A stretch of DNA of 6,696 nt, taken from the IMG/VR virus record IMGVR_UViG_2606217117_000014, one strand, 5' to 3'. Shown in pieces: positions 1,558-6,696 of this stretch. Numbering within the stretch: the first letter of the stretch is position 1; every line of letters begins with the position of its first letter. Origin of the DNA: a virus (Duplodnaviria > Heunggongvirae > Uroviricota > Caudoviricetes). The position numbers and the translations under genes were made by a program. The notes under the pieces were generated by a model that worked only from the letters and a program-made list of their open reading frames with translations, was not told where the DNA came from and ran no database searches.

Positions 1558-1562
1558 CAAGG

Positions 1563-1604
1563 TTGATTTTTCCGGAATCTGTGGTAAATTCGTCATAACG
1601 ATGG
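1563..1604 (+). promoter_or_regulatory. pR'-like late promoter with Q-dependent pause element
   Basis: -35 TTGATT (1563-1568), 16-nt spacer, -10 TAAATT (1585-1590). Six nt later AACGATGGG (1596-1604), the same arrangement as recalled lambda pR' (TAAATT-TGACTC-AACGATGGG). Confidence 0.6.
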
Positions 1605-1638
1605 GCCTTTTATGCCTGACGTTAGAAGAGTTTCTACA

Positions 1639-1664
1639 ACCCGCCGCCGAGCGGGTTTTTTATT
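1639..1664 (+). terminator. tR'-like intrinsic terminator
   Basis: Stem ACCCGC (1639-1644) pairs with GCGGGT (1651-1656), 6-nt loop, then TTTTTTATT. About 65 nt downstream of the predicted pR' start. Confidence 0.65.
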
Positions 1665-1950: not shown

Positions 1951-2090
1951 CTATATTCATTCTTCCAGATTCCTTCCGGCAGAGCCTTATACTGAAATAT
2001 ACCTGGCTCAGGATATTGTTGAAAATATTATATGTTTGTCAAAAATAAAAGTTCTGTTAAGTATTGATTGAGTGTTTGTTATACGGTCTA

Positions 2091-2417
2091 ATGGTTTTTT
2101 CAGCATTAAATATTTATCATTCATATGGTGTGGGTAGAGTGAATATTGATGAGGCGTCGGGGTGTTTCATCCTTAGGCAGCGTATTGATATAGTCAATGC
2201 AGCACGAGCAAAGGCCTTCAGCCGTTTGACAGTTTTGTTCTGTACTCCTGATCGTCTTTCGGGAAGAGACGTTATTATTCTGAATAGTGATGCTATTCAG
2301 AGGGTTTGCGATGAGTTCATGGTTGCTAATTCAGAATTATTTGCTCTTGTTCAGGAGTACAACAGAATAGCCAGGACCTGTGGTATGGATGAACTTCGGA
2401 TTACTCATCTGGGGTAG
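2091..2417 (+). CDS. Hypothetical protein, ~108 aa from ATG 2091 (117 aa if TTG 2064 is used), unknown function
   Basis: Open frame to TAG 2415-2417. Candidate promoter TTGTCA (2036-2041), 16-17 nt spacer, TAAGTA/AAGTAT (2058-2064) just upstream. No convincing SD. Occupies the position of stx genes in Stx phages. No recognisable motif. Confidence 0.4.
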   Translation: MVFSALNIYHSYGVGRVNIDEASGCFILRQRIDIVNAARAKAFSRLTVLFCTPDRLSGRDVIILNSDAIQRVCDEFMVANSELFALVQEYNRIARTCGMDELRITHLG

Positions 2418-2584: not shown

Positions 2585-2808
2585 CCGGGTATCAGTTAGC
2601 GGGAGAAATTTTTAAATACTTCACAATTCAGGCGGTTGACTGTTGTCTGGTTTGCGGGGAGTTTGTTAAAAGAAACTGGCATGGTGAATCCCCCTGTGCG
2701 GAGGGGCAATCAGCGAGTAGGTATATGGGATAATCGCGGATTCAGGTGCTGGTACTGAATTCACCGGGAGGCACCCGGCACCATGCAATGGCACATAGCG
2801 CCACTCTC

Positions 2809-2838
2809 CAGCCCCTCTCCGGAGGGGCTGTTTATATT
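2809..2838 (+). terminator. Rho-independent terminator, plus-strand orientation
   Basis: 9-bp GC-rich stem CAGCCCCTC (2809-2817) / GAGGGGCTG (2822-2830), 4-nt loop, followed by TTTATATTGATTTT. The reverse-strand flank is not U-rich. Confidence 0.6.
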
Positions 2839-2861
2839 GATTTTGTCAGATGTGAGTAAAC

Positions 2862-2895
2862 TCCTTATGGACTTTGTTGTTTTAGTCCATAAGGA
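2862..2895. repeat. Perfect 12-bp inverted repeat with 10-bp spacer (TCCTTATGGACT-N10-AGTCCATAAGGA)
   Basis: Read directly from the sequence. Overlaps the last about 10 codons and the stop of the minus-strand gene 2865-3200. Confidence 0.75.
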
Positions 2896-3200
2896 CATAT
2901 TTGCAGAGTGCAACGGTTATTAAAGCATTCATTCAATACGTTATCTGTATTTGTAGGACATTCCTGGCTGTTTTTGATTAAATTCCAGAATGTTTTATTG
3001 AATGGTGCTACGTTGTAAATGGTTACAGGTAGCACTTTGTTATTGAGCATGATACCTGTGTGAGTCAGTGTAAATATACTTTCAGGAGGTAAGAAAGCAT
3101 CCGATTGATACCAGATTATTAATTTTATTTTACTCCATATGACTGAAAAAGATATTCCGCATGATGGCTGGATAACTGTATCAATCACAATCCACTTCAT
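2865..3200 (-). CDS. Hypothetical Cys-containing protein, 111 aa, AT-rich moron gene convergent to the late operon
   Basis: Strong SD AAGGAA 6 nt upstream of ATG (plus 3198-3200). A 111-codon open frame in DNA that looks very AT-rich by eye is unlikely by chance. Translation: [18 protein letters not shown]...[10 protein letters not shown]. No recognisable family. Confidence 0.55.
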
Positions 3201-3240
3201 TTAGTTTCCTTGTTTATGTCTTGCTGGTGATGTTCTGAAA

Positions 3241-3267: not shown

Positions 3268-3460
3268 CCATAGAGCAGAATTATTTTTCTGATGTTGTTT
3301 ATTGTTTATTTAAATGCAGGGTGGTTTATATCTCGTCTTGTAGTTTATCCATGCATATCTGCTTGATGATGAGGTTTTTATTTAAGGTATGGTTTTGTGT
3401 TTTTTCTGTATTACATGTCAGGTATTTTAAAGAATTATTTTTCAGATGGTGGAAAGAACC

Positions 3461-5827: not shown

Positions 5828-6696
5828 TGAACCGCCCCGGGTTTCCTGGAGAGTATTTTATCTGTGAACTCAGGCTGCCAGATCATCGTTTCCGATGGAA
5901 GCATAATAAGCTTTTTCTGCTTCTGCCGGAGGAGTATGGCCCAGCCTTTCCAGCAATCGTCGATTGTTATACCAGTCCACCCACGTGAGTGTGGCCAGTT
6001 CCACTTCTGCACGGTTTTTCCAGCTCTTACGGTGTATTACCTCCGCTTTGTAAAGACCATTGATGCTCTCCGCCATCGCGTTGTCATACGAGTCGCCTGT
6101 ACTTCCTGTTGATGCCAGTAATCCGGCTTCCTTAAGCCGCTGTGTGTAGGCCAGCGATACATACTGAGAACCTTTATCACTGTGATGGACCGTGCCGGAC
6201 GGTCGACGGGCCCATAACGCCTGCTCCAGTGCATCCAGCACGAATGTCGTCTCCATGGACGATGAGACCCGCCACCCCACAATGTATCCGGCAAACACAT
6301 CAATGATGAACGCCACATAGACGAAGCCCTGCCATGTGCTGACGTAAGTAAAATCAGCCACCCACAGCTGGTCAGGTCGTTCTGCCACGAACTGACGGTT
6401 TACGCGGTCGCCTGCGGCAACGGCTTTCCGGCTGATGGTCGTACGGACCTTTTTACCCCGGAGAACACCGGCAAGTCCCATAACCGCCATGAGACGTGCC
6501 ACAGTGCATCTGGCCACTCTGATACCTTCCCGTAACAACTGACGCCAGACTTTACGCACACCGTATACCTTGTGATTTTCATCGTATACGCGCTGTATCT
6601 CTTTCTTCAGCCAGTCATCGCGCTGCGCACGGGCACTGCGTTTATCCGGATGATGTCGCTGTTGCTGACAGTGGTAATACGTTGACGGGGCAATAT
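5828..6696 (-). mobile_element. IS3-family insertion sequence (IS629-like), partial; runs off the right edge of the window
   Basis: Terminus TGAACCGCCCCGGGTTTCCTGGAGAG at 5828 matches the recalled IS629/IS3-family terminal inverted repeat. Encloses a DDE transposase OrfB on the minus strand ending 42 bp inside the end. Confidence 0.8.
5870..6696 (-). CDS. IS3-family transposase OrfB (DDE integrase core), N-terminal part outside the window
   Basis: Frame is open from the window edge (hand translation 6560-6696 has no stop) to TGA at plus 5870-5872. Motifs WVADFTYV, HHSDKGSQY, DSYDNAMAES, YKAE are typical DDE transposase blocks. Confidence 0.85.
   Translation of the reverse strand, partial: IAPSTYYHCQQQRHHPDKRSARAQRDDWLKKEIQRVYDENHKVYGVRKVWRQLLREGIRVARCTVARLMAVMGLAGVLRGKKVRTTISRKAVAAGDRVNRQFVAERPDQLWVADFTYVSTWQGFVYVAFIIDVFAGYIVGWRVSSSMETTFVLDALEQALWARRPSGTVHHSDKGSQYVSLAYTQRLKEAGLLASTGSTGDSYDNAMAESINGLYKAEVIHRKSWKNRAEVELATLTWVDWYNNRRLLERLGHTPPAEAEKAYYASIGNDDLAA

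Follow-up and report, generated by a model that had tools for sequence, protein, structure and literature searches.

The window, the whole stretch of 6,696 nt that was analyzed, is the Q-to-lysis region of a lambdoid prophage. It contains a C-terminal fragment of a DUF968 gene, RusA, the antiterminator Q, two tRNAs, a DUF3927 gene, an sRNA gene, a minus-strand gene, a nanS-p-type esterase gene and then an IS3-family element. The three features that frame the present analysis are as follows.

2650-2839, plus strand: STnc100 sRNA gene (Rfam RF02076, full length), convergent with iraL
2865-3200, minus strand: iraL, a 111-aa RssB anti-adaptor of the IraM family (NCBIfam NF007393), carried as prophage cargo (a moron)
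3201-3233, minus strand: iraL 5' untranslated region, position 3233 being the start mapped by 5' RACE in CFT073 (PMC4045071)

The minus-strand protein matched NF007393 over residues 1-110 with 162.4 bits (cut-off 121), and its gene is annotated in RefSeq as "anti-adapter protein IraM." A prophage-borne paralogue, iraL, was described in uropathogenic E. coli (UPEC) CFT073, where its product binds RssB and stabilizes RpoS in log phase (PMC4045071). The potB-island prophage of CFT073 has the gene order of the window and an identical palindrome, and the minus-strand gene of the window is at the same locus as CFT073 c1429 (PMC4045071, PMC12890032). The published 5' RACE sequence (PMC4045071) matches the minus strand of the window at 3204-3233, with an R at the single position at which the window differs from CFT073. 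The window gene annotated as IraM is iraL. It is homologous to iraM of K-12, which lies next to e14; the window protein is about 64% identical to K-12 IraM and shares the C-terminal CPYG motif. It also resembles an iraM-like gene of Stx2c phages, which has about 78% DNA identity and occupies the same slot between STnc100 and a nanS-p-type esterase gene. Unlike the window gene, K-12 iraM is followed by the GC-rich terminator hairpin on the icd side.

The STnc100 gene was found with 132.4 bits (gathering score 47, E = 7e-30), and a 2026 preprint links the STnc100 family to the PasD sRNAs. The terminator scan called its intrinsic terminator as a stem at 2809-2830 followed by a U-rich tail. On the strand opposite to STnc100, RefSeq annotates a pseudo CDS ("hypothetical protein," about 2669-2794), which lies wholly inside the sRNA gene and is probably spurious.

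An iraL-type allele was present in 1431 of the 5426 complete E. coli genomes (at least 80% cover of an 801-nt query). The GTDB genome scan also found it in E. albertii; the scan returned Escherichia and Shigella relatives only and no more distant alleles with a usable 3' flank. The slot between STnc100 and the esterase gene is a site of cargo exchange, which may hold iraL, the iraM-like gene, a second STnc100-like copy (locus L095) or about 230 nt of other sequence (locus L094). In E. coli O157 strain 180-PT54 (locus L003, 2437-3326), a 107-aa iraM-like gene lies immediately downstream of the stx2c B gene and a copy of STnc100. A direct repeat of 21 nt, with 90% identity between its copies (3277-3297 and 3431-3451 of the window), was found where the cassette that contains iraL has its right edge. 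The second copy holds the ATG of the esterase gene at 3446, and the repeat may represent a duplicated translation-start region of the nanS-p-type esterase gene.

Other features of the window were also recorded. The region just downstream of the Q gene (1558-1664, plus strand) contains a strong, terminator-like hairpin, CCCGCCGCCGAGCGGGTTTTTTAT (1640-1663). This region gave a weak Rfam match to the Trp leader (25 bits, below threshold), and the hairpin is probably the tR' terminator on which Q acts. The tRNA at 1701-1776 was called tRNA-Met (anticodon CAT) by ARAGORN and tRNA-Ile by RefSeq, the latter presumably being lysidine modified and of the ileX/ileZ type; with the tRNA-Arg (TCT) at 1877-1951, it makes up the usual rare-codon tRNA set downstream of Q. 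A 117-aa ORF between the tRNAs and the DUF3927 gene (2064-2417, plus strand) had no NCBIfam match and no RefSeq annotation in L001, a locus 100% identical to the window. The IS3-family element (about 5865-6696, minus strand) contains a 229-aa transposase ORF at 5870-6559, and its part at 6364-6696 is 96.7% identical to IS1203 in L094. It apparently interrupts a DUF826 gene downstream of DUF1378, and L001 has no IS at that place.

A first-pass annotation of the window had reported a palindrome, TCCTTATGGACT-N10-AGTCCATAAGGA, at the end of the minus-strand gene. Its coordinates (2862-2895) were exact, and all 12 of 12 positions pair. The palindrome is composed of three parts.

2862-2873, minus strand: left arm TCCTTATGGACT, the 3' arm on the gene strand, read as AGT CCA TAA GGA (Ser-Pro-stop)
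2874-2883, minus strand: 10-nt spacer TTGTTGTTTT, the loop of the hairpin, which on the gene strand is AAAACAACAA (the end of Leu, then Lys-Gln-Gln)
2884-2895, minus strand: right arm AGTCCATAAGGA, the 5' arm on the gene strand (third base of Cys, Pro-Tyr-Gly and the first two bases of Leu)

The overlap with the stop codon was confirmed, as the iraL stop (TTA on the plus strand, 2865-2867) is inside the left arm. So was the placement of the palindrome between the gene and a plus-strand terminator, which is that of STnc100; the terminator stem is 31 nt to the left. The centers of the two half-sites are 22 bp apart, or about two helical turns, and extension of the palindrome is blocked by a C opposite a C at 2861/2896.

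We then asked how often such a palindrome would occur by chance. It is the sole perfect inverted repeat of at least 10 bp with a loop of up to 20 nt in the 6,696-nt window. A 12-bp perfect inverted repeat was found in 0.6% of 1500 random windows generated with a Markov-1 model, and the analytic expectation was 0.008. Since the same arithmetic gives about six such 12-bp palindromes per 5-Mb genome, the palindrome is unexceptional by statistics alone in a whole-genome scan.

On either strand, the RNA of the palindrome was predicted to fold into a 12-bp stem with a 10-nt loop, with a free energy of -17.8 kcal/mol for the plus strand and -17.5 kcal/mol for the minus strand. The z score was about -5.5, and none of 200 shuffled sequences was equally stable. 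The corresponding DNA folds had -10.3 and -10.8 kcal/mol for the two strands. Among alleles of the clade to which the window belongs (the main clade), the predicted gene-strand hairpin had -17.5 kcal/mol (z = -5.4) in the perfect form, -16.9 kcal/mol in a G-U variant and -11.6 kcal/mol in a double variant. In the fold model, the main-clade iraL mRNA is thus able to end, at its 3' extremity, in a stable stem-loop. Farther along the gene strand, the next hairpin is formed by the STnc100 terminator read in antisense, and it has no U-tract.

The first-pass annotation had offered three roles for the palindrome: an RNA stem-loop that stabilizes the message, an operator, or a recombination site. The predicted fold is compatible with the first of these, which is the best supported and the only one to survive, and the observations below speak against the other two. 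The stem-loop does not have the properties of a canonical intrinsic terminator. The terminator scan did not call it, its stem has 5 G-C pairs of 12 and its loop is 10 nt, compared with a G+C-rich stem of about 5-14 bp and a loop of 3-8 nt in such terminators. The tails that follow the stem, GUUUACUC on the gene strand and CAUAUUUG on the plus strand, each contain 4 U in 8 positions, compared with at least 5 of 8 required. The stop codon lies within the 3' arm and not upstream of the hairpin. The palindrome stands directly after a cargo gene, where the terminator of a phage moron would be expected; however, it differs from the intrinsic terminator of a moron by its AT-rich stem, its 10-nt loop, its poor U-tract and the stop codon in the stem.

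Could the palindrome instead act at the DNA level, as an operator for a dimeric regulator or as a site of recombination or module exchange at the left edge of the iraL cassette? The symmetry itself would suit a dimeric protein, since the 12-bp dyad is perfect in the window and the half-site centers have the helical spacing given above. Nevertheless, the palindrome lies where iraL ends, some 340 nt beyond the transcription start, which is not a promoter location. A search for the half-site with up to two mismatches returned only the two arms in the window, and with up to one mismatch only these arms in 219 related prophage loci (1.3 Mb). Among 5426 E. coli genomes searched by blastn, the 46-nt region containing the palindrome was found at 1579 places in 1432 genomes, at most two per genome and always under an iraM-like gene; the region was identical in 1000 of these genomes, had one or two mismatches in 419 and was 80-90% identical in 13. 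A repeated element of the REP or BIME kind was rejected on this distribution.

As for recombination, the homology with prophages that carry no iraL breaks at 2829-2835, about 27 nt from the palindrome. This closeness might suggest a junction, but the break coincides with the end of the STnc100 terminator and is outside the palindrome. No integrase, invertase or other site-specific recombinase was found in the window, in which RusA is a junction resolvase, and the 10-nt spacer is atypical when compared with the 6-8 bp crossover spacer of recombination core sites. In O157-type prophages without iraL, a 9-mer, CTTATGGAC, follows the STnc100 terminator and could be the remnant of an arm at an old junction; the match is marginal given the search space (about 0.02, post hoc), and part of the 9-mer is the U-tail of the terminator. 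The first-pass annotation had itself named lack of conservation of the palindrome in homologous loci, or a half-site that occurs nowhere else and has no effect on expression, as grounds for dropping a role. In the homologous loci, intact sister-clade alleles keep only 6-8 of the 12 pairs and 107-aa alleles have no left arm, about half of the alleles have asymmetric arms, and the half-site was found nowhere else; the operator and recombination readings thus fail on those grounds. We consider a DNA-level site very improbable.

The iraL-less prophages showed a further arrangement in this place. In at least 120 IMG/VR loci (L096 onward) and in L094 (3185-3235), all of the O157 type, the sequence directly after the STnc100 terminator is GGGGCT-TT-CTTATGGAC-A7-GCCCGCGC(A/T)GGGAGACGCGGGC. 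The 9-mer in it equals the core of the palindrome arm and is followed by a G+C-rich hairpin whose minus strand carries a T7 tail, although the annotation shows no minus-strand gene upstream of it. The arrangement may have been left behind by a minus-strand cargo gene that has since been lost, or may be due to chance.

The palindrome turned out to be the core of an imperfect inverted repeat of about 77 nt (2837-2913), whose outer arms are listed here.

2837-2854, no strand assigned: outer left arm, in the iraL 3' untranslated region, overlapping the U-rich tail of the STnc100 terminator
2896-2913, no strand assigned: outer right arm, iraL codons (..C T L Q I C)

A 7-nt bulge (2855-2861) separates the outer left arm from the inner left arm. 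When aligned, the arms of the extended repeat share 25 of 29 positions; the alignment needs three indels, and each of its four mismatches is a transition. The 5' half of the gene strand reads TTGCACTCTGCAAATATGTCCTTATGGACT, and the 3' half, with which the reverse complement of the 5' half was aligned, reads AGTCCATAAGGA-GTTTACT-CACATCTG-A-CAAAAT-CAA. In plus-strand RNA the outer arms add 17 pairs, 4 of which are G-U. The outer duplex (-13.8 kcal/mol on the plus strand) was reached by 45 of 5000 shuffled sequences and by 11 of 932 other 25-mers of the window.

The two halves of the extended repeat have different histories. The right half is coding sequence (..LQICPYGL), and the CPYG(L/R)K ending is common to K-12 IraM and the Stx2c-phage allele. 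Since this half is conserved as coding sequence across the whole family, the left half would be the derived copy. The left arm then repeats, in inverted orientation, the codons with which the gene itself ends, and this accounts directly for a perfect palindrome that straddles the stop. The reading frame is consistent with this origin. The 107-aa alleles stop at AAA-TAA, where the window reads AAA-CAA (CAA at 2877-2879); from there the iraL ORF crosses the turn of the repeat (QQ) and enters the inverted copy (SP), where it is closed by TAA, the reverse complement of the TTA in the CCT-TAT of the other arm. Relative to the allele of the Stx2c phage, alleles of 111 aa are longer by about 28 nt, a stretch that holds the 3' arm; the K-12 3' flank is unrelated and gives no root for calling this indel an insertion or a deletion. 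The residues of the tail differ between alleles (QQSP, QQCP and RHRP), as would be expected of a fortuitous extension.

Inverted repeats are known to be created or perfected by template switching in E. coli and its phages, and quasi-palindrome mutations of this kind are known from Ripley-type mutagenesis in E. coli and phage T4. The iraL repeat shares several features with them: the extra segment is the reverse complement of the adjacent sequence, the resulting hairpin is near perfect with a short loop, and a short prior inverted repeat is present at the outer boundary in an allele without the insertion. The last of these is a perfect 6-bp ATTCTG...CAGAAT repeat in the Stx2c-phage allele, the kind of quasi-palindrome that a fold-back event would need. 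The iraL repeat is unlike observed template-switch mutations in that the event has to be reconstructed from alleles and that the arms differ by four transitions and three indels. Moreover, relative to the sister clade, both arms must have changed to give the perfect core, and a single switch is therefore insufficient to explain everything.

We infer the following course of events from the alleles. Fold-back or template-switch synthesis, acting at a short quasi-palindrome that was already present, would have placed an inverted copy of the last 16 or so codons of iraL immediately downstream of them. The family stop codon would then have been lost (TAA to CAA), and the ORF would have read through the turn into the inverted copy. 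In this way the duplication may have given IraL its 4-aa tail and its stop codon, as well as the 3' untranslated region up to the convergent STnc100 terminator. On the sequences compared, the palindrome is most likely the scar of a small fold-back duplication, and it is specific to this lineage.

A similar tendency was seen elsewhere in the family. In K-12 iraM, the CPYG codons (locus L002, 2190-2201) are themselves a 12-nt palindrome without mismatch, GCCCATATGGGC, and a second ATGGGCT immediately follows the stop. The complementarity of Pro and Gly codons in the CPYG motif may make this gene end prone to quasi-palindromes.

A census of the arms was made in 82 IMG/VR and GTDB loci of the same allele class as the window. 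The arms were perfect in 44 loci and asymmetric in 38 (about 46%). The commonest change, GGA to GGG, occurred by itself in 31 loci and together with a C-C mismatch at pair 2 in 5 more (36 with GGG in total); it gives a G-U pair in gene-strand RNA and an A-C mismatch on the plus strand. A change of TGT to TGC was present in the remaining 2. None of the arm changes in the 82 loci was compensated, and a covariation analysis on alignments of distinct alleles found no compensatory change on either strand. The hairpin had 3 segregating sites in 34 nt, compared with 7 in the remaining 305 nt of the coding sequence. Purifying selection on the palindrome was rejected, since segregating sites are more densely spaced in the hairpin than in the remaining coding sequence.

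Alleles outside the main clade do not have the hairpin. The intact 111-aa alleles of a sister clade, which have 95% identity beyond the hairpin, retain 6, 7 (as in strain 2013C-3181) or 8 of the 12 pairs and carry QQCP, QQSP or RHRP as their tail; their 3' ends (-4.1 to -5.5 kcal/mol) fold no better than shuffled sequence. The 107-aa alleles, namely K-12 iraM (about 71% nucleotide identity to the window gene) and the iraM-like gene that comes directly after stx2c (about 78%), end four codons sooner and have neither the left arm nor such a hairpin. On this comparison of alleles, the hairpin is not needed for an intact iraL, and any function that it has is dispensable. Since intact alleles exist without it, any effect of the hairpin would be modulation and not a requirement.

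These results raised the question of whether the inverted repeat is neutral, that is, whether it arose by a template-switch mutation or by chance and its 12-bp core has no measurable effect on iraL or its neighbors. The frequency of such palindromes expected in a genome fits this explanation, and so do the raised polymorphism of the hairpin, the uncompensated arm changes and the intact alleles without it. In addition, the ribosome would open the stem at every termination event. On the other hand, a stem of -17.5 kcal/mol at the 3' end of a message is physically expected to slow exonucleases, whether or not it has been selected. The arms also differ between the two 111-aa clades three to five times more than the remaining gene (4-6 of 24 nt versus about 5%), and at least one arm change (TGC to TGT) polarizes to the main-clade branch, although the choice of a perfect palindrome for study biases this comparison. 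That change is in the coding arm, the only arm that can be polarized; the ancestral state there is TGC, and the TGT of the main clade is derived. Each of the 4-6 positions at which the arms differ from those of the sister clade falls on a Watson-Crick pair of the window, but because a perfect palindrome had been picked, this pattern is largely automatic and is not counted as evidence of selection; "directional perfecting" as a proof of selection was set aside. We regard a neutral by-product as possible, though somewhat unlikely.

Stem-loops at the 3' ends of mRNAs impede PNPase and RNase II. The 12-bp stem at the end of iraL would most likely act as such a barrier against 3'-to-5' exonucleases. 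Transcripts of iraL that end farther downstream, by Rho or otherwise, would be trimmed back to the stem, which would slow PNPase and RNase II. The hairpin could perhaps also serve as a weak, non-canonical definer of the 3' end ahead of the antisense STnc100 gene, and it may weakly limit read-through into STnc100 antisense. Since the stop codon is inside the stem, each terminating ribosome would open the hairpin, which argues against efficient co-transcriptional termination. Judging by the predicted fold, the stem-loop is probably a modest stabilizer or 3'-end definer of the iraL mRNA. It resembles REP-type hairpins and hairpins left by trimming after Rho termination in that a stable hairpin with a poor U-tract ends a short monocistronic message between convergent genes. 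It is unlike them in that the palindrome is single copy, the stem holds the last codons and the stop, and the structure is not conserved across alleles.

The extended repeat also allows a structure on the other strand. Plus-strand RNA that reads through the STnc100 terminator could fold 2837-2913 into an imperfect hairpin of 29 bp, which by analogy might be an RNase III processing site or might block the antisense transcription of iraL. The predicted structure has 29 pairs and -29.4 kcal/mol, compared with the inner 12 bp only and -20.4 kcal/mol on the minus strand. All four outer-arm mismatches become G-U pairs on the plus strand, and in 8 distinct alleles, those of the sister clade among them, 91% of cells pair and seven one-sided wobble changes are seen. 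However, the left arm is rich in G and U, which makes wobble pairing likely without selection, and all four mismatches would favor one strand by chance in 1 of 8 cases. A strand preference based on wobble pairs (7 to 1 for the plus strand) was rejected as not significant and is explained by the same composition. No compensatory change was found, no U-tract follows the stem, and the common GGG variant breaks a pair of the plus-strand stem (-12.7 kcal/mol). In keeping with a read-through structure, the left outer arm includes the U-tail of the STnc100 terminator, so that the long stem would be open only to RNA that has passed this terminator, by read-through of the sRNA or in the Q-antiterminated late transcript. 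We consider a function of this plus-strand structure improbable.

The long stem has a parallel in retroregulation at sib/tI of phage lambda, where a longer stem likewise forms only in transcripts that read through an upstream terminator. Unlike in lambda sib, the structure at iraL is separate from the terminator hairpin, and the likeness is one of analogy only. If the analogy is extended, the inverted repeat could be imagined as a translation-sensitive, strand-asymmetric switch between two convergent regulators, a sib-like retroregulation that links a prophage sRNA to the stabilization of RpoS. When iraL is not translated, the 3' hairpin would form and would stop or limit transcription before it becomes antisense to STnc100. 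When ribosomes reach the embedded stop, they would melt the hairpin, and the resulting read-through would silence STnc100. In read-through or Q-antiterminated plus-strand RNA, the 29-bp stem would be cut by RNase III and the antisense RNA over iraL would be destroyed. We consider such a switch extremely improbable.

Taken together, the reading that we prefer is an inverted duplication by template switching which has left the iraL message with a stable 3'-terminal stem-loop, and not a protein-binding or recombination site. In our judgment the chances that this whole reading is correct are about even. The analysis shows the anatomy of the repeat, which gene it ends, how the alleles differ and how the RNA is predicted to fold; the duplication mechanism and any effect on mRNA stability are what we infer from the alleles and the predicted fold. 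The IraL paper (PMC4045071) and two transcriptome papers on CFT073 make no mention of the palindrome, the hairpin or the 3' end. The genes iraL and STnc100 were already known, and a 3' stem-loop derived from a quasi-palindromic inverted duplication is an ordinary kind of feature; none of these results alters how any system is understood. The locus offers a clean example from nature in which a fold-back duplication would have supplied a characterized, virulence-associated regulator with a C-terminal tail, a stop codon and a 3' untranslated region in one step.

IraL raises RpoS in growing uropathogenic E. coli and Shigella. If the hairpin stabilizes the iraL message, it would help to explain the expression of iraL in log phase, where iraM is not expressed. 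In that case, differences in expression would be predicted between the alleles with the perfect palindrome, which make up about 70% of carriers, and the minor alleles.
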